A stretch of DNA of 64,000 nt from Oscillospiraceae bacterium. Its GTDB lineage: Bacteria; Bacillota; Clostridia; Oscillospirales; UBA929. The stretch covers positions 27,011 to 91,010 of the forward strand of contig JAIRUW010000013.1 of NCBI GenBank assembly GCA_031254195.1. The letters run 5' to 3'. Below are positions 1,565-54,221 of the stretch, one piece after another. The translations under genes were made by a program, and so were the position numbers. Under the pieces are notes generated by a model. The model was not told where the DNA came from. It saw nothing but the letters and a program-made list of their open reading frames with translations, and did not search any database. Position 1 is the stretch's first letter. Every line of letters starts with the position of its first letter.

Positions 1565-2350
1565 ATGATGTTCCATGAGAAATTGCAACAATTGCGAAAG
1601 GAAAAAGGCCTGTCGCAGGAATCCCTGGCTGAAATGCTCGATGTTTCACGGCAAGCGGTCTCTAAATGGGAAAGCGGCCAATCCTATCCTGAGATGGACA
1701 AGCTGATAGCCCTCAGCGACATATTCGGGGTCACGCTGGACAGCCTTGTCAAAGATGGCGAGTTGCAGGAGGGCGGCGGCAATCCAACTTACGCGCCGTT
1801 TTATATGACGGGGAGGACTTCTTACGAGTACAAAAGCAAGAGGACGCTGTTCGGCCTGCCTTTGCTCCATGTCAACATCGGTTTCGGGGCAAAGAAAGCA
1901 AAGGGCGTCCTTGCCATCGGCAATATCGCCACAGGGATCGTGTCGATAGGGCTTTTCGCGCGCGGGCTTTTATCATTTGGGTTGCTTAGTATTGGGGTAC
2001 TCGCGTTTGGCACCCTTGCGACGGGCCTGTTGCTGGCGGTGGGCGGGGTCGCGGCGGGAACGATCGCCGTCGGTGCGGTCGCTATCGGAATATTCGCGCT
2101 GGGCGCGGTTGCCGTTGGGATGTTTTCGTTTGGGGCGGTGGCGGCAGCGTCCCACATCGCCGTCGGGGATCACGTGTATGGACATATCGCCGTCGGACGG
2201 GTCGCGGCGGGGGCCAGAACCTTCATAGACACATCGCCCGCCCGGAATTTTTCCGCGATCAGCGCGGAAGAGGTCAGAAAAGCCATCACAGAGGAATTTC
2301 CGGGCTTGTGGAATTGGATCGTGCGGCTGATGACGTCATGGTTTAGGTGA
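1565..2350 (+). CDS. XRE-family HTH regulator fused to a Gly/Ala-rich membrane domain
   Basis: LSQESLAEMLDVSRQAVSKWESG HTH; YEYKSKRTLFGLPLLHVNIG followed by repetitive GxxAxG hydrophobic segment; RBS AGGAGG. Confidence 0.85.
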   Translation: MMFHEKLQQLRKEKGLSQESLAEMLDVSRQAVSKWESGQSYPEMDKLIALSDIFGVTLDSLVKDGELQEGGGNPTYAPFYMTGRTSYEYKSKRTLFGLPLLHVNIGFGAKKAKGVLAIGNIATGIVSIGLFARGLLSFGLLSIGVLAFGTLATGLLLAVGGVAAGTIAVGAVAIGIFALGAVAVGMFSFGAVAAASHIAVGDHVYGHIAVGRVAAGARTFIDTSPARNFSAISAEEVRKAITEEFPGLWNWIVRLMTSWFR

Positions 2351-2371
2351 TGGGTGGGTGAAAAACAACAC

Positions 2372-2400
2372 TTGACACTGCGTCGATGTTGTGACATAAT
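2372..2400 (+). promoter_or_regulatory. Sigma-A promoter of antisense RNA 1
   Basis: TTGACA-N17-CATAAT with extended -10 TG; no ORF follows on this strand. Confidence 0.75.
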
Positions 2401-2405
2401 AAAAG

Positions 2406-2500
2406 CACAAGAGAGTTGACCGCTTGACGGTTAGCCCGTAATCAGCAGAATATCAGCATTTAGCCGTCATCCTGTGGTAGGGGGGACGGCTAATATGCTG
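2406..2500 (+). ncRNA. Putative type I antitoxin RNA (copy 1)
   Basis: 5' hairpin GTTGACCG/CGGTTAGC; 3' hairpin CAGCATTTAGCCGTC...GACGGCTAATATGCTG overlapping the peptide stop codon; layout shared with 4502-4593 and 53600-53690. Confidence 0.65.
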
Positions 2501-2573
2501 TAGGGGCGAAGCGGAACAATATGTAGAGCACCAATATAATAGTGATAGCATATCGCAGCAGCTTTTTTCCCAT
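2490..2573 (-). CDS. 27-aa hydrophobic peptide MGKKLLRYAITIILVLYILFRFAPTAY, putative type I toxin (copy 1)
   Basis: Translated by hand; RBS GAAAGGGGG; basic N-terminus plus single TM stretch; paralogous to 4431-4514. Confidence 0.8.
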   Translation of the reverse strand: MGKKLLRYAITIILVLYILFRFAPTAY

Positions 2574-2678
2574 AGGCACACCCCCTTTCGCACCCAGCGT
2601 ATGCTTGGCACAGGGGGACTAACCGCCCAACGTCTCTGTCAGATTCTCTCTTGTGTTGCCGGTTTCCCGGCAAATCAG

Positions 2679-2707
2679 AGTATATCACTGTTTTCGACAA
2701 AACACAA
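2679..2707 (-). promoter_or_regulatory. Sigma-A promoter of peptide 1 mRNA
   Basis: TTGTGT-N17-TATACT with extended -10 TG on minus strand. Confidence 0.6.
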
Positions 2708-2790
2708 CAGCAAACCCATTTCGTGTATCTATGGCTGTGGACTTCTCACCACACAACTAACGGGTACTCTATTCTGCACTCCATCATTAT

Positions 2791-3246
2791 TTATCTACTG
2801 CCATCCTTACTGCATGTCCAAAATGAGAGCTTCATGGCAATCGGATTGATGCCCACAGAGAGTACATAGCTGACCGCGAACCCCAAAGGGATCCCTTTCA
2901 TCACTGTCTGCAAATAATATGGAGGGAACCCAATCGCGAGCGCCGTATAGAGAAATCCGAAAAATACGACGTAGATGGACGAAAAAATAAGGGTTGTGAG
3001 CAGAATATACGAAAACGTGCCGTTTTTAGCGCGAAACAGTCCGGCAAACTTGTCCGCAAGCGGCTGAATGGGAATCAGCAGCCCCACCGCATTGGCGACG
3101 ACAAATCCGAATGCCATGTCACGCAAAACACCGGGGAACGGTATGGTTCCCGCATATATGAGGGAAAAGGCGGGGACGATCACAAGTACCATCAAAATGG
3201 AAAACCAAAACTGCGCAACATACCGAAACGCTTTCATGGTAAACAT
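2791..3246 (-). CDS. Small 4-TM membrane protein of unknown function
   Basis: Four hydrophobic segments; start taken at MFTMKAF after GGAGG; overlaps AraC stop region. Confidence 0.7.
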   Translation of the reverse strand: MFTMKAFRYVAQFWFSILMVLVIVPAFSLIYAGTIPFPGVLRDMAFGFVVANAVGLLIPIQPLADKFAGLFRAKNGTFSYILLTTLIFSSIYVVFFGFLYTALAIGFPPYYLQTVMKGIPLGFAVSYVLSVGINPIAMKLSFWTCSKDGSR

Positions 3247-4124
3247 GATTCCGCCTCCTGCTCCGCAAAGTGATTTTTCTTCACTTCTATCCAAATCTCA
3301 CCCATTTGCTCAGGATAGCTGCCGTCGCCGACAGGAGACACGACCATCTGATACTCGTCCGGTATATAGTCCGACGCGGGAAAAAACTCCGCGTATATCC
3401 GCTTCCAAATATCCGCTTCCGGGTGCCTTTCGGTCAGCTCCCGGCACATGAATTTGATCCATGTGCGCGCCGGGAGGTCCTTGACGGCATATCCTTCGGG
3501 GATCGTATCCTTATCATAGAAGGTAGCGACGTAATACAGCTGCGTTTCACCGTCAAACGAGGAGCCGTCCGATAATCCGATCAGCTCTCTGCCGGGGGAT
3601 GTGGAGAGCCCCGTCAATGCCCGTGTTGTGCCGTCGGCGTGGCATTGATGCCATAGCTGTGATGGGGCGTCGTATCCCTCCCCGTGCCTGACCGCTTTGC
3701 CGATCAGTCTAAATTCCTTCATTTCTTCAATGCAATACATCAAAACACTGCCGCCGTTTAGGGATAGTGAAATAGATAAAGGAAACAGCATATTGACCTT
3801 CGCCCCCTTCATTCTGGCGGCGGAAGGCAAAATGCTGTGAAAACGCTCAAAAGCCCTTGAAAAGCTCTCCGGTGTGTCGTAGCCATATTTCATGGCAATC
3901 TCAATGATCTTGCTGTCGCTTGACTGCAACTCAACGGCGGCCAGCGACAACCGGCGGTTGCGGATGTACGTTCCCAACGTCATACCGCTCAGCAAAAGGA
4001 ATAACCGCTGAAAATAAAACGGCGATACATACGCTTTCTTGGCAATGTCTTTAACGTCAAGGTCGCTTAGCATGTTATCCTCGACGTATTGGATTGCCTT
4101 TTGGATGCCTCTTGATAAATCCAT
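3234..4124 (-). CDS. AraC-family regulator with C-terminal GyrI-like effector domain
   Basis: SPFYFQRLF...YIRNRRLSLAA...YGYDTPESFSRAF; C-terminal IWKRIYAEFFP...EIWI; start MDLSRG after AGAGGTGAG. Confidence 0.9.
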   Translation of the reverse strand: MDLSRGIQKAIQYVEDNMLSDLDVKDIAKKAYVSPFYFQRLFLLLSGMTLGTYIRNRRLSLAAVELQSSDSKIIEIAMKYGYDTPESFSRAFERFHSILPSAARMKGAKVNMLFPLSISLSLNGGSVLMYCIEEMKEFRLIGKAVRHGEGYDAPSQLWHQCHADGTTRALTGLSTSPGRELIGLSDGSSFDGETQLYYVATFYDKDTIPEGYAVKDLPARTWIKFMCRELTERHPEADIWKRIYAEFFPASDYIPDEYQMVVSPVGDGSYPEQMGEIWIEVKKNHFAEQEAESCLP

Positions 4125-4319
4125 GCCCTCACCTCTTTCCCCTTCAGTATAGAGGAAAGAACATAACTTGTCTTGACTTTTTTTGCCGTGAAGTGTCAGT
4201 TGGATTATATTGTATGCTGATAGAGGCGTTGCACAAACGCCTACTATAAGTGTGCAACTGCCTCGTTTATGGAAATAAATGAAACGGTATAGGAAGGAAA
4301 AGGAATTGATAATTTTAGC

Positions 4320-4348
4320 TTGCGGCTTTTGCCGAAATATGCTAGGAT
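4320..4348 (+). promoter_or_regulatory. Sigma-A promoter of peptide 2 mRNA
   Basis: TTGCGG-N17-TAGGAT with extended -10 TG. Confidence 0.55.
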
Positions 4349-4430
4349 AGGCGAGCAAGAGGGTGTCGGTTACTGAAAACGCCGCCGTTCTTCCCCGCGA
4401 TTCTGTTGTGGAGGAAGGAGGTGGTTGCCA

Positions 4431-4514
4431 ATGGGAAAAAAGCTGCTCCGCTTTGCCTTATGTGTCGTTTTGGCGCTATGGCTCATGTGGTGGTTAGCCC
4501 CAAAAGCAATGTAG
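4431..4514 (+). CDS. 27-aa hydrophobic peptide MGKKLLRFALCVVLALWLMWWLAPKAM, putative type I toxin (copy 2)
   Basis: Translated by hand; strong RBS GAAGGAGGTG; same length and termini as copy 1. Confidence 0.8.
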   Translation: MGKKLLRFALCVVLALWLMWWLAPKAM

Positions 4515-4593
4515 CCGCTCTACCCCGCTCAAAGGTAACGGCTACATAGCTTGTTATTGATAGCGGCGTGTCGGTTTCCGGCACGCTCTTGCA
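4502..4593 (-). ncRNA. Putative type I antitoxin RNA (copy 2)
   Basis: 5' hairpin GCGTGCCGG-AAA-CCGACACGC; terminator GCTATGTAGCCG...CGGCTACATTGC-TTTT overlapping the peptide 3' end. Confidence 0.7.
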
Positions 4594-4598
4594 TTTTT

Positions 4599-4626
4599 AG
4601 TATAGCATATCCGGCAGGATTGTCAA
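4599..4626 (-). promoter_or_regulatory. Sigma-A promoter of antisense RNA 2
   Basis: TTGACA-N16-TATACT with extended -10; identical to 53567-53594. Confidence 0.8.
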
Positions 4627-4658
4627 GGATAATATTACAGGCTCCGAAACCAGTCGTA

Positions 4659-5576
4659 TCAGTCCTGTTCGCCCATCAGCAATGCCATTACGGCTTTCTG
4701 CACATGCAGGCGGTTTTCCGTTTCGTCGTAGATCTCTTTCGCGTGAGCGGCGAACGCCTCGGCGGTGATCTCTTCGCCGCGGTGGGCGGGCAGGCAGTGC
4801 TGCACGATCACGTTTTTGGCGCAGAGGGAGAGCAGCTCCCAATTTATCTGATACCCGGCAAAATCGCGGAGGCGTTTTTGCGCGTCGCCCTCCTGCCCCA
4901 TGCTGGCGAAAACATCGGTAAAGACCACGTTGGCCCCCTCCGCCGCCTCACGCGGGTCGCGCAGCAGGGCAAAATCGGGGTTCTTTCGCGCAGTCTCTAA
5001 AATCTCGGCGCGCGGTTCGTAGCCCTCGGGGCAGGCCACGCGTATCTTCATGCCGCAGGTCAAAGCCCCGGAGATTAGGCTGCAACACACATTGTTGCCG
5101 TCGCCCACCCAGCAGGCGGTCAGCCCCGCCAGCGTCGCCAAATGCTCGCGGACAGTCATCAGGTCAGCCAAAATCTGGCAGGGGTGTTCGTCGTCGGTCA
5201 AACCGTTGATGACGGGAATGTTGCCATACCGGGCGAAATCCTCCACGTCTTTTTGCGCGAAGGTACGGATCATCACGCCGTCCACATAGCGGCTCATTAC
5301 GTTGGCGGTGTCCTCAACCGGCTCCCCGCGCCCGAACTGCGCGTCGGCGGAGGTGAGGCAGATGGCGTGGCCACCCAGCTGGAACATCCCCGCTTCAAAC
5401 GACACGCGCGTCCGCGTGGACGCCTTGGTGAAAATCATCCCCAAGGTCTTCCCCTCCAGCACACGGTGCGACAGCTTGTGCTGCTGGTTGAACTTCATCT
5501 GGTCCGCCAGCGCCAGTATCTCCATAATGTCGTCCTGCGTCAGGTCGGACATTTTCAGCAAGTGTTTGACCGTCAT
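4659..5576 (-). CDS. argF: Ornithine carbamoyltransferase
   Basis: STRTR, HPCQ and HCLP motifs; arg operon context. Confidence 0.97.
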   Translation of the reverse strand: MTVKHLLKMSDLTQDDIMEILALADQMKFNQQHKLSHRVLEGKTLGMIFTKASTRTRVSFEAGMFQLGGHAICLTSADAQFGRGEPVEDTANVMSRYVDGVMIRTFAQKDVEDFARYGNIPVINGLTDDEHPCQILADLMTVREHLATLAGLTACWVGDGNNVCCSLISGALTCGMKIRVACPEGYEPRAEILETARKNPDFALLRDPREAAEGANVVFTDVFASMGQEGDAQKRLRDFAGYQINWELLSLCAKNVIVQHCLPAHRGEEITAEAFAAHAKEIYDETENRLHVQKAVMALLMGEQD

Positions 5577-34510: not shown

Positions 34511-34539
34511 TTGACAATAGAGGAAAACTTTTATATAAT
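34511..34539 (+). promoter_or_regulatory. Consensus sigma-A promoter of rpoBC
   Basis: TTGACA-N17-TATAAT. Confidence 0.85.
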
Positions 34540-51416: not shown

Positions 51417-52577
51417 GTGGCTAAGGAGCAAAAAAAGACTAAAAGTCTGAACTATTTATCAGTGCGCGAGTCGAGACGGATTACGCGCGAGAACCGCCGC
51501 GTTACCGCGCGGTTCGACAAGCAGCTCAAACGCAAGTATGTGCCGGAGAGCGAGTATCTGACGCAAATGAAGGACCCCAACAACGTCGTGGAGTTTGACG
51601 ACCTGCACACCCATTTCTTTACCGACATCGGCACCGTCCGGGCGGTTGACGGCGTTTCGTTCGACGTGCCGAGGGGGAAGACAGTCGGCGTAGTCGGGGA
51701 GTCGGGTTGCGGCAAGTCGGTGACCAGCCTGTCGCTGATGCAGCTGTTGCAACGCCCGCAGGGGCAGATCGTCAGCGGCGCGATACGCTTTAACGACGGT
51801 ACGCGGGCAGTGGACATCACCAAAATGCCACTGGTAGGGATGCAGAGTATCCGCGGCGGCCAGATCTCGATGATTTTTCAGGAGCCGATGACCAGCCTCA
51901 ACCCTGTCTTCCGTATCGGCAAGCAGATGGACGAGGTTTTCGAGCTGCATGAGAAGGGGCTTTCCAAAGCCGAACGCAAGGAGCGTTCGATAGAATTGTT
52001 GAAAATGGTCGGCATTGCCAACAGCGAAGGCGTATACCGCATGTACCCGCACGAGCTGTCGGGCGGGATGCGCCAGCGGGTAATGATTGCCATGGCGCTC
52101 TCCTGCAAGCCGAGCCTGATCATTGCCGATGAGCCGACGACCGCGCTGGACGTGACAATACAAGCGCAGATACTAGACCAGCTGCGGCAGCTGAAGGACC
52201 AGATCAACTCCAGCATCATGCTGATTACGCACGATCTGGGCGTCATTGCGGAGATGGCGGATTACGTTGTCGTCATGTACGCGGGCAAAATTGTGGAGAA
52301 GGGGACGGCCGTCGAGGTCTTTGGCAACCCTAGCCACCCGTATACCATCGGCCTGCTCAACTCAAAGCCGGTGGTCAACAAAAAGGTGGACCGGCTCTAC
52401 AGTATCCCCGGCAAGGTGCCCAACCCCATCGAGATGCCTGACTACTGCTATTTCAAAGATCGCTGCGAGATGACGGTGGAGGGGTGCGGCGGGCCATACC
52501 CGTGCCAGTACCGCCTTTCCCCCACGCACCTTGTCTCCTGCTATCGCTTCGCCGATAAGGAGGTGGCCGCGCAATGA
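51417..52577 (+). CDS. oppD: Peptide ABC transporter ATPase
   Basis: GESGCGKS, LSGGMRQR, DEPTTALDV. Confidence 0.93.
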   Translation: MAKEQKKTKSLNYLSVRESRRITRENRRVTARFDKQLKRKYVPESEYLTQMKDPNNVVEFDDLHTHFFTDIGTVRAVDGVSFDVPRGKTVGVVGESGCGKSVTSLSLMQLLQRPQGQIVSGAIRFNDGTRAVDITKMPLVGMQSIRGGQISMIFQEPMTSLNPVFRIGKQMDEVFELHEKGLSKAERKERSIELLKMVGIANSEGVYRMYPHELSGGMRQRVMIAMALSCKPSLIIADEPTTALDVTIQAQILDQLRQLKDQINSSIMLITHDLGVIAEMADYVVVMYAGKIVEKGTAVEVFGNPSHPYTIGLLNSKPVVNKKVDRLYSIPGKVPNPIEMPDYCYFKDRCEMTVEGCGGPYPCQYRLSPTHLVSCYRFADKEVAAQ

Positions 52578-53560
52578 CGGAACAGGGCAATTCAGATGTG
52601 ATTTTGGAAGTTAAGGACCTAAAAAAATATTTCCCCATCAAGGCAGGGCTGCTTCAGCGTACCGTCGCGCAGGTCAAGGCCGTGGACGGCGTTAACTTCT
52701 CCCTGCGCAAAGGCTCGACGATGGGCCTGGTGGGCGAGTCGGGCTGCGGCAAGACGACCGTGGGGCGCACCGTGCTGCGCCTGCACGGCAAAACGGGGGG
52801 CGACATCCTGTTTCATGGGCAAGAGGTCCATACACTGGATAAAAAGACGCTGCGCTCCCTCCGCCCGCGTATGCAGATTATTTTCCAAGACCCTTATTCC
52901 AGCCTTTCGCCGCGTCTGCCGGTCGGCGAGATTATCGGCGAGGCGCCGCGCGAGCACGGCATCACCAATAAGGACAACCATAACCGCCACATCGACAAGA
53001 TCATGTCCGACTGCGGCTTGCAGCCCTACCACAAGGACAGGTACCCGCACGAGTTTTCCGGCGGGCAGCGGCAGCGCATCTGCATCGCCCGCGCGCTGGC
53101 GCTCAACCCGGAATTCGTCGTCTGCGACGAGCCGGTGTCGGCGCTGGATGTGTCGATCCAGGCGCAGATCATCAACCTTTTGATGGATCTGCAGAAGGAA
53201 TACGGCCTGACATATCTCTTTATCTCGCACGATCTGTCTGTGGTCGAGCATATCTCCGATACCGTAGGCGTGATGTATCTGGGCAATATCGTGGAATACG
53301 GCTCCAAAGAGGATATATTCAAAAGCCCGTATCATCCCTACACCCGCGCGCTGTTCAGCGCCATCCCCATCCCCGACCCCACCGTCAAGATGAACCGCGT
53401 CATCCTCGAAGGGGACATCCCTTCGCCCGCCAACCCGCCGTCCGGCTGCAAGTTCCACACCCGCTGCCGCGACTGCATGGAAAAATGCAAGACGGAGGAG
53501 CCGGTACCGGTCGAAATGGCGCCGGGGCATACGGTGGTTTGCCATTTGTATAATTCGTAA
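52574..53560 (+). CDS. oppF: Peptide ABC transporter ATPase
   Basis: [36 protein letters not shown]. Confidence 0.93.
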
Positions 53561-53566
53561 TCTCTC

Positions 53567-53594
53567 TTGACAATCCTGCCGGATATGCTATACT
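53567..53594 (+). promoter_or_regulatory. Sigma-A promoter of antisense RNA 3
   Basis: TTGACA-N16-TATACT; identical to reverse complement of 4599-4626. Confidence 0.8.
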
Positions 53595-53599
53595 GAAAG

Positions 53600-53690
53600 T
53601 GCAAGAGCGTGTCGTTACCGACACGCCACCGTAAGAAATAGCTTATGTAGCCGTTATCCTTTGGGGGATAGAGCGGCTACATAGCTTTTG
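53600..53690 (+). ncRNA. Putative orphan type I antitoxin RNA (copy 3)
   Basis: GCAAGAGCGTGTCG-ttac-CGACACGC hairpin; terminator ATGTAGCCG...CGGCTACATAGC-TTTT; homologous to copy 2. Confidence 0.7.
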
Positions 53691-53724
53691 GGGCAAACTT
53701 TATCAGGAGCCAGAGCGCGAATAA
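53677..53724 (-). pseudogene. 3' remnant of toxin peptide (LFALWLLIKFAPKAM*)
   Basis: Aligns with C-terminal 15 aa of copy 2 (VLALWLMWWLAPKAM); no MGKK start, RBS or leader upstream. Confidence 0.75.
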
Positions 53725-53735
53725 TTGGAGGGAAT

Positions 53736-54221
53736 ATGCAAATGTCGGACTATCAAAAGCAAAAGGCAGCCAAGCCCAAAATAAACGACAGGATAAATGA
53801 GCTGCTTGCCGGAACAATGCGGGAAATGGCTTTGGGATTCGTTGCATGGATGAAAGAACACAAAATGACGGCTGGATGGGCTTCGACGGACTCATGGAAG
53901 ACGAGCTATCGAGGGAAGGGATTATTTTACATAAGGATCAGTGAGGGCAAATGGACTGTTAATCCTGTTTTCTGGGATATAGATGAGGTTGCCGATTATA
54001 TCACAGAAGAGGGTTACCAAGAGTTCATCTTGAATAATCTGTATGATTGCCGGTTTTGCCATCCCGCGCCTTGCCGCATTACAGACAGGATTTTTTTCGG
54101 CAAAGAGCTCAAGGGCCTTTGCGGCGGGCGGCCGATTTTGCATTGCGAAAATCCTGATGAGCGGACTGTAGAATTTTTGAAAGGGTTGATAGTTTACATG
54201 AGAAAGAAGATTAGTGGATAA
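53736..54221 (+). CDS. Hypothetical protein with CxxC...C...C motif
   Basis: ATG after GGAGGGA; CRFCHPAPC...LC; AT-rich. Confidence 0.75.
   Translation: MQMSDYQKQKAAKPKINDRINELLAGTMREMALGFVAWMKEHKMTAGWASTDSWKTSYRGKGLFYIRISEGKWTVNPVFWDIDEVADYITEEGYQEFILNNLYDCRFCHPAPCRITDRIFFGKELKGLCGGRPILHCENPDERTVEFLKGLIVYMRKKISG

Follow-up and report, generated by a model that had tools for sequence, protein, structure and literature searches.

Type I toxin–antitoxin loci usually have a strong antisense promoter opposite a weak toxin promoter, and they are almost never annotated because their genes are tiny and their families share no sequence. Here we report a candidate from a 64,000-nucleotide stretch of the genome of an Oscillospiraceae bacterium (contig JAIRUW010000013.1; the whole stretch analysed is called the window below). 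At positions 4320–4626, on the plus strand, a tiny gene for a predicted 27-residue membrane peptide, whose mRNA is predicted to fold shut, faces a putative small antisense RNA gene. A first-pass annotation of the window had singled out this locus (copy 2) as the second of two intact copies within the 64 kb, the other (copy 1) lying at 2400–2707 on the minus strand. On balance, we lean towards reading the locus as a chromosomal type I toxin–antitoxin-like module of a family absent from the libraries searched.

The described system whose layout is closest to that of the present locus is par, i.e., the Fst / RNA I – RNA II system of Enterococcus faecalis pAD1 and its chromosomal relatives. Set against the organisation of par as outlined in PMC7472228, the locus has convergent promoter-like sites ~240 bp apart, a hairpin right after the open reading frame (ORF) that would be common to both RNAs and a predicted antitoxin RNA that is small. 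In par, and by prediction here, the Shine–Dalgarno (SD) sequence is masked by an intramolecular stem–loop, and the extreme 5′ terminus of the toxin mRNA is sequestered in a helix within the same molecule. However, par is built on direct DNA repeats, with complementary 5′ regions and a covered start site, whereas the repeats of the present locus are inverted and the 5′ regions of its two RNAs are alike. In addition, the peptide lacks the PXXXG motif and the charged C-terminal tail of Fst. Examined as a possible member of the Fst/RNAII family, the locus thus showed neither direct repeats nor an Fst-type toxin with a Pfam or Rfam match.

The txpA/RatA, bsrG/SR4, bsrE/SR5 and yonT/SR6 systems of Bacillus subtilis, as summarised in PMC8594479, resemble the locus in having the antisense RNA on the 3′ side, where it overlaps the end of the ORF. 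The same source gives this 3′-side placement as the Gram-positive pattern, and names SD/anti-SD pairing, terminal stem–loops and long-distance pairing between the 5′ and 3′ ends as hallmarks of type I toxin mRNAs. SR4 is described in PMC3834814 as controlling both decay and translation; comparably, blocking the 3′ part of the copy 2 mRNA lowers its predicted SD accessibility. The Bacillus 3′-overlap toxins are 28–60 residues long with charged C-termini according to the survey in PMC6563280, and no sequence or model match links them to the locus. Two more points set the locus apart from the Bacillus systems: the segment targeted by the antisense RNA is also predicted to pair with the mRNA 5′ end, and copy 1 shows no SD effect.

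End-to-end pairing locks the full-length toxin mRNA in hok/Sok and aapA1/IsoA1, and is predicted to do so here. In these Gram-negative families, the antisense RNAs act near the 5′ part of the mRNA or the start of the ORF, and activation proceeds by 3′ trimming. At the present locus, by contrast, the antisense gene lies over the 3′ arm itself. A further likeness is to the prgQ/Anti-Q/Qs region of pCF10, which, as described in PMC3181467, combines a short RNA, a small hydrophobic peptide and a convergent promoter with an antisense 5′ RNA. However, prgQ heads a long attenuated operon and faces the prgX receptor-repressor gene on the other strand, whereas nothing co-directional follows the present ORF and its neighbour encodes an AraC/GyrI-type regulator. 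Each single feature of the locus is already known in other families and would not surprise specialists.

Layout and predicted folding of the locus

Copy 2 lies inside a 525-bp gap between two minus-strand genes, and its ends are exactly the two putative −35 hexamers. The following features were identified or predicted in silico:

4320–4348, plus strand: weak promoter-like site of the peptide mRNA (TTGCGG, 17 nt, TAGGAT, with TG); presumed start ~4354–4355
4355–4386, plus strand: 5′ arm of the predicted closing helix (GCAAGAG.GUGUCGG..ACUGA..CGCCGCC); its G.U evidence is in the mRNA sense only
4381–4394, plus strand: anti-SD element (GCCGCC.UUCUUCC), which pairs with 4413–4425
4413–4425, plus strand: SD region (GGAAGGAGGUGGU), ending 5 nt before the ATG; its GGAGG core ends 9 nt before the ATG
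4431–4514, plus strand: ORF of 27 codons (ATG 4431, TAG 4512–4514), reading MGKKLLRFALCVVLALWLMWWLAPKAM; basic N-terminus and single hydrophobic span
4504–4552, both strands: central hairpin (inverted repeat 4504–4517 / 4539–4552), which holds the stop codon; followed on the minus strand by UUGCUUUUGG
4563–4598, plus strand: 3′ arm of the predicted closing helix, with an alternative local hairpin at 4565–4587 and a T-run at 4594–4598; presumed mRNA 3′ end
4498–4592, minus strand: predicted antisense RNA of ~95 nt with two hairpins (z-score −3.16, 0 of 200 shuffles as low)
4626–4599, minus strand: strong antisense promoter-like site (TTGACA, 16 nt, TATACT, with TG; 11/12)

The copy 2 ORF follows a strong SD run (GGAGGAAGGAGGUGG). 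The peptide carries its N-terminal charges at K3, K4 and R7, and its C-terminus reads APKAM or APTAY, depending on the copy. It is small (<60 amino acids) and hydrophobic with one predicted membrane span, as type I toxins are, and its grand average of hydropathy is 1.20 as a whole and 2.33 in the core for copy 2 (1.11 and 2.19 for copy 1). The two loci are 73% identical over their alignment, and copy 1 is laid out as follows:

2400–2707, minus strand: copy 1, intact; promoter 2707–2679, closing-helix arms 2655–2616 and 2437–2406, SD 2585–2579, central hairpin 2500–2454
2573–2490, minus strand: copy 1 ORF, reading MGKKLLRYAITIILVLYILFRFAPTAY
2372–2400, plus strand: copy 1 antisense promoter (TTGACA, 17 nt, CATAAT, with TG)
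~2405 to ~2500, plus strand: copy 1 predicted antisense RNA (fold z −4.21)

The first-pass annotation had stated that the reading frame is conserved between the two copies, with the same length, the same first seven residues, an AP-x-A-x end before a TAG stop and a diverged core, all of which we verified in both peptides. Within the window, the frame is indeed kept: the 84 nt of the ORF contain no indel, while the flanks contain several, and the differences fall on the three codon positions as 8/7/14. The proportion of differing sites is 0.32 at nonsynonymous positions (pN) vs. 0.48 at synonymous ones (pS), and the replacements in the core preserve its hydrophobicity. A 17-nt block, ATGGGAAAAAAGCTGCT, has two exact occurrences in the window and no others even at ≤3 mismatches, for a chance expectation of 0.17; at least two occurrences were reached in 1 of 100 shuffles. 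This block is the first 17 nt of each ORF (4431–4447 and 2557–2573), the remainder of which is ~65% identical between the copies, and it includes an A6 run that becomes U6 on the antisense strand. The identity possibly stems from constraint at the translation start, from a pairing site or from gene conversion.

Promoter-like sites converge on the locus from both sides. By our own count, the peptide-mRNA promoter matches the consensus at 7/12 positions in copy 2 and at 8/12 in copy 1 (TTGTGT-17-TATACT, with TG); both fall under the threshold of our consensus scan, so that neither is listed there. The copy 2 site resembles the antisense promoter in inverted orientation. The antisense promoters of all three copies, including a truncated one (copy 3) described further below, score 11/12 in the scan and carry an extended −10 TG. 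A separate scan of both strands of the window returned seven sites of at least 11/12, four of which have the TG, and three of these four are the antisense promoters. The sole 12/12 consensus in the window is at 34511–34539 on the plus strand (TTGACA-17-TATAAT).

The central hairpin would be common to both predicted transcripts. Its post-stop sequence differs between the copies with pairing retained, which bears out an earlier statement that the hairpin or terminator stems vary and yet stay paired. In all three copies, the hairpin is more stable in the antisense sense (for copy 2, −24.5 vs. −20.2 kcal/mol in the mRNA sense), where it contains 3, 2 and 2 G.U pairs, vs. 0, 0 and 0 in the mRNA sense. 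The hairpin is followed by convincing U-tracts in copies 2 and 3 alone, and there solely on the antisense strand; in the mRNA sense the tracts are poor. The hairpin is likely the main or terminator stem of the antisense RNA. This predicted RNA is nested towards the 3′ end of the mRNA, where it overlaps the final five sense codons plus the stop; its 3′ end (~4498) is a guess.

In the predicted folds, the SD is hidden by an anti-SD element and/or by pairing between the 5′ and 3′ ends. The two copies use unlike sequences for this pairing, as had been proposed: in copy 2, GGAAGGAGGUGGU pairs with GCCGCC.UUCUUCC in both the leader-only fold and a 205-nt fold, and in copy 1 GGGGGU pairs with UCCCCC. 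The SD is mostly paired in all four modelled states, with a mean probability of being unpaired of 0.015–0.28 (0.015–0.24 for copy 2). When antisense binding was modelled by blocking the 3′ part, this probability fell from 0.243 to 0.018 for the copy 2 SD. The fold of 4355–4600 has an energy of −115.1 kcal/mol (z −7.75) and the equivalent fold of copy 1 −113.5 kcal/mol (z −6.11), with 0 of 200 shuffles as low in either case. The long-distance helix in these folds, which closes the mRNA end to end, presupposes an mRNA that reaches 4594–4598; the 4563–4598 region was listed as a terminator-like site in the scan.

As a separate observation, the post-stop stretch 4514–4528 repeats the leader anti-SD 4384–4398 with 87% identity, forming a direct repeat in the copy 2 mRNA whose copy 1 counterpart is 2600–2625 and 2468–2496. 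The post-stop repeat could act as a second, downstream anti-SD (−21.5 vs. −27.7 kcal/mol in copy 2, −16.6 vs. −21.9 kcal/mol in copy 1).

Strand-specific signals and predicted pairing between the RNAs

The first-pass annotation had also proposed that RNA structure is kept despite sequence change, and comparison of the copies within the window agrees with this. RNAalifold predicted 52 consensus pairs for copies 1 and 2, 17 of which are changed on both sides. When the structure was re-predicted on 200 column shuffles, 9.2 ± 2.6 compensatory pairs were obtained with a maximum of 15, so that none of the shuffles reached 17, and none was as low in consensus energy (−46.65 vs. −19.4 ± 3.9). Sliding the partners by 1–3 columns leaves 1–2 compensatory pairs; however, the sliding control favours the structure, which was derived from the same sequences, and the re-prediction on shuffles is the fairer test. 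The changes are concentrated in the inner closing helix, in which 7 of 10 pairs are changed on both sides; in the SD helix this holds for 2 of 6, with 3 more changed on one side. Being a comparison of two sequences, short of a proper covariation test, these counts are supportive of a fold shared between the copies.

The arms of the closing helix differ by five transitions in their transcribed part, two in copy 2 (counted from GCAAGAG onward only) and three in copy 1. All five lead to a G.U pair in the mRNA sense and to an A.C mismatch in the opposite sense, and none does the reverse. Folding energies follow the same direction, with −115.1 kcal/mol for the mRNA sense vs. −85.0 kcal/mol for its complement in copy 2 and −113.5 vs. 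−100.3 kcal/mol in copy 1. Thus, the closing helix carries the wobble signature of the mRNA strand and the central hairpin that of the antisense strand. We regard this pair of opposite signatures as our best evidence that each strand makes a selected, functional RNA, as appears to be the case under these models.

A near-duplication of the mRNA 5′ end by the antisense 5′ end, reported earlier, was recovered here with 24 of 31 aligned columns identical. Because the antisense gene lies opposite the mRNA 3′ end, likeness between the antisense RNA and the mRNA 5′ end is equivalent to pairing of the mRNA 5′ end with its own 3′ end. The duplicated 5′ ends are therefore better read, given the modelled folds, as the closing helix within the toxin mRNA.

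A different interpretation had been offered, in which every small RNA would be specific to the leader of its own copy, and this was not well supported. The antisense segment AACCGACAC is, as claimed, fully complementary to leader GUGUCGGUU; in copy 2, no perfect run between leader and antisense RNA is longer. This 9-bp run was reached by 26 of 1000 shuffles; the longest run of copy 1, at 7 bp, was reached by 312 of 1000. When mismatches were tolerated in an ungapped score, the cognate pairs did stand out: shuffles scored as high in 4 of 500 cases for copy 2 and 1 of 500 for copy 1. The corresponding counts were 43 and 498 of 500 for the cross pairs between copies 1 and 2, and 24 and 288 of 500 for the copy 3 antisense RNA. 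However, RNAduplex energies between leader and antisense RNA were not above dinucleotide shuffles in any of the six pairs (z −0.68 and −0.14 for the cognates), and the best-scoring sites differ between copies 1 and 2. In copy 2, the best site sets the anti-SD (4384–4398) against part of the antisense hairpin, which reflects the direct repeat 4384–4398/4514–4528 of the mRNA. Pairing of the small RNA with its own leader in trans is thus weakly suggested by these sequences.

Cofolded over their full length, the RNAs show the specificity in cis that would be expected. Cognate mRNA–antisense pairs reached −101 and −113 kcal/mol, and the cross pairs between copies 1 and 2 gave ~0. The orphan antisense RNA of copy 3 (53601–53695) cofolded with copy 2 mRNA (4497–4592) at −29 kcal/mol with 81 intermolecular pairs.

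Candidate mechanism and competing readings

If the locus is a type I module, it would work as follows. An mRNA of ~240 nt (~4355 to 4598) from the plus strand would encode the 27-residue single-span membrane peptide, and its translation would be shut by two locks. The first would be pairing of the upstream anti-SD with the ribosome site, and the second pairing of the extreme 5′ end with the extreme 3′ end, in a closing helix placed directly before the terminal U-run. From the minus strand, a much stronger promoter would drive the ~95 nt antisense RNA within the 3′ part of the mRNA. This RNA would resemble the mRNA 5′ end because it is the complement of the 3′ arm, and it would compete with the 5′ end for that arm. 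Its binding would form a duplex of ~95 bp and unzip the closing helix. As in the Bacillus 3′-overlap systems, the duplex would be open to attack by a double-strand RNase, and mRNA decay would precede synthesis of the peptide; the peptide, when made, would damage the membrane. Retention of the antisense half by copy 3, which lost its toxin half, argues for a type I module.

A more specific form of this mechanism, which we put forward only speculatively and hold to be unlikely in full, is a new type I architecture based on mimicry: the antitoxin RNA would imitate the 5′ end of the cognate toxin mRNA, and self-closure and antitoxin binding would exclude each other. Here, the end-to-end helix would both silence and stabilise the mRNA, and would also provide the stem that precedes the terminal U-run. 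Encoded opposite the 3′ arm, the antisense RNA would displace the 5′ arm, and decay would be signalled by the long duplex in combination with the liberated 5′ end. The toxin would be a free-standing helix of signal-peptide type that carries its charge N-terminally, opposite to the arrangement in known Gram-positive type I toxins, and the orphan antisense RNA at 53601–53695 could act in trans on copy 2.

Several observations weigh against the type I module. Its peptide is charged at the wrong end: Gram-positive type I toxins, as characterised in PMC6563280, have a hydrophobic N-terminal part and a charged C-terminus, a layout opposite to the one found here. The ratio dN/dS between copies 1 and 2 is only ~0.55, and all evidence of conservation comes from two intact copies and one fragment in the same window. 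The reverse-complement consensus fold is nearly as good as that of the mRNA sense, at −42.85 kcal/mol with 11 compensatory pairs. In copy 1, the antisense strand has no U-run after the hairpin, and blocking the 3′ part did not tighten the SD, whose probability of being unpaired went from 0.221 to 0.277. Finally, the U-rich stretch after the central hairpin in copies 2 and 3 is a possible stop for the mRNA, and an mRNA ending there would exclude the closing helix.

By our own reading, the peptide resembles a stand-alone signal peptide that lacks a mature part: its n–h–c organisation comprises a basic N-terminal stretch, a hydrophobic core and an end containing proline and small residues, and conserved ends around a variable core could yield mature peptides specific to each copy. 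The gene could alternatively encode a non-toxic small peptide under antisense control, either the precursor of a secreted hydrophobic signal or inhibitor or a small modulator of a membrane protein, with its level set by the convergent RNA in the way that Anti-Q and Qs act on the prgQ RNA. Copy 2 is divergent from the AraC/GyrI-like regulator gene and copy 3 directly follows two oligopeptide-transporter ATPase genes, positions that would suit such a role, and in prgQ/prgX, as presented in PMC3181467, convergent antisense RNAs regulate a small peptide-coding RNA with a non-toxin product. However, no Rgg, PrgX or RRNPP-type receptor gene adjoins any of the copies, and no co-directional gene lies downstream of the ORF for an attenuator to control; an adjacent receptor-regulator and a downstream attenuated operon are the features by which we compared the locus with pheromone and inhibitor precursors, taken from general knowledge of these families, in part or in whole. 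The double translation lock, the stronger antisense promoter and the orphan antisense remnant also fit a harmful product better, and we consider a non-toxic peptide unlikely. It is improbable, too, that both RNAs stop at the central hairpin, used as a bidirectional terminator as in par, and that the antisense RNA silences its own mRNA mainly by trans-like pairing of its 5′ part with the leader, which is the model that we derive from the first-pass annotation. The convergent promoters, the shared post-stop hairpin, the 5′ stem–loop over the SD and the sequestered 5′ end do parallel par as laid out in PMC7472228, and the 9-bp run of copy 2 and the cognate scores, which exceed shuffles where those of the non-cognate pairs of copies 1 and 2 do not, point the same way. 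Yet the repeats are inverted rather than direct, which makes the two 5′ ends alike and not complementary; the duplex energies do not stand out in any of the six pairs, copy 1 has no unusual perfect run, and the best sites are not the same in the two copies. Moreover, pairing at the best site of copy 2 would occupy the anti-SD and free the ribosome site instead of hiding it, the wobble pattern of the arms is that of pairing within one mRNA-sense molecule, and a stop at the hairpin is poorly served by the U-tracts in the mRNA sense.

We see very little chance that the locus is a decaying repeated intergenic element of the miniature inverted-repeat type, in which the ORF and hexamers are incidental. 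Three copies in 64 kb, each bounded by an inverted repeat, would suit such an element, as would the extension of the copy 2 repeat into promoter DNA that is not transcribed and the absence of any homologue or family in the searches listed below. However, the ORF is open, of identical length and preceded by an SD in both intact copies despite 73% locus identity, and third-position changes are in excess, while compensatory changes exceed those of shuffles. The wobble pairs are strand-specific, one helix favouring the mRNA sense and the other the antisense sense, and no target-site duplication was seen, by reading, at the ends of copy 2.

Two further candidates were set aside. A leader peptide or attenuator was discarded, since no co-directional gene lies downstream, and a bacteriocin was dropped, since no immunity or export genes are nearby, the features of that family being taken from general knowledge.

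Should the type I reading hold, the locus would represent a chromosomal family missed by current models in a GC-richer organism with Firmicutes-type promoters, and the 64 kb would contain two live copies of it plus one orphan antitoxin. In addition, the locus would offer a compact case of one 3′ segment shared by mRNA self-closure and antitoxin binding. If the product is non-toxic, the locus would still be a clean example of a small membrane peptide gene with cis-antisense control. The reviews consulted treat Clostridia chiefly through C. difficile.

Library searches, further copies and neighbouring genes

Searches of sequence and model libraries returned no relative of the locus. Rfam gave no match over the whole window at gathering score, and at E ≤ 10 over 2300–4700 it gave three matches of 10–18 bits against cut-offs of 50–58, which we read as chance; one of the three is a mir-210 match of 16.8 bits on the central hairpin. 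Pfam gave no family for the two peptides and NCBIfam none for four peptide forms. Because these three libraries gave no match, the locus is assigned to the type I class and to no family. A tblastn search of the peptide against plasmids and phages found no match, although the low-complexity filter may conceal one. By blastn, the loci had no match among plasmids and two 27-nt matches among phages (E 0.3), taken as chance. A protein search with the 45-residue stop-to-stop translation returned no candidate of 24–79 amino acids sharing three 5-residue words, and an exact look-up of the four peptide forms in the protein collection returned none. A phmmer search of the 30-residue translation against 1.84 billion representatives gave three hits of 542–1404 amino acids with 7–13 stretches, which were rejected as low-complexity noise.

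Genome contigs were also scanned with the 17-mer, and none of the at least 119 chance matches listed holds a comparable ORF. Among these 119, 74 ORFs run for ≤45 amino acids from the matched ATG, none of them alike, and 45 are longer; four of the 119 were read by eye, and the genome of the window itself is not among the matches listed. The antisense covariance model found nothing in 100 of the 119 listed chance loci. A full-text literature search found no paper with the first seven residues of the peptide. The supplementary tables of Fozo et al. 2010 and T1TAdb reportedly contain many predicted toxin ORFs, which could already include this peptide family.

Within the window, the covariance model built from the three antisense regions matched the same three alone, the next best match having 14 bits (E ~0.1). 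The third of these belongs to the truncated copy:

~53566–53725, minus strand: copy 3, truncated; blastn with copy 2 matches 53566–53721 at 81.9% identity over 160 nt (E 4e-36)
53567–53594, plus strand: copy 3 antisense promoter (11/12 plus TG)
53601 to ~53695, plus strand: copy 3 predicted antisense RNA (fold z −6.01)

Copy 3 retains the last 15 codons (LFALWLLIKFAPKAM, then TAG), the post-stop central hairpin, the distal arm and the antisense promoter. It lacks the toxin promoter, the ribosome site and the first ~12 codons, which are replaced by the start of a plus-strand ORF.

The minus-strand genes that flank copy 2 are the following:

3234–4133, minus strand: AraC-family regulator with a GyrI-like ligand domain, from which copy 2 is divergent
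4659–5576, minus strand: ornithine carbamoyltransferase (argF)

Other neighbours of the copies are a DUF2798 gene and argD. The antisense promoter of copy 2 reads in the direction of the regulator gene. Between the two intact copies, which are oriented outward, lies a minus-strand unit of two genes, for the AraC/GyrI-like regulator and a DUF2798 membrane protein (2791–3240); the arrangement is reminiscent of a composite inverted pair.

Copy 3 is preceded, at a distance of 6 nt, by the end of the two oligopeptide/dipeptide ABC-transporter ATPase genes (51417–53560), which are relevant only if the peptide is a signal and not a toxin. On the other side, the antisense promoter of copy 3 points into the plus-strand ORF, which has ~160 codons (to ~54221), an ATG near 53733–53739 and no Pfam match. 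The start of this ORF lies within ~10 nt of the end of the homology to copy 2, and the antitoxin promoter and RNA of copy 3 may now act as its promoter and leader.

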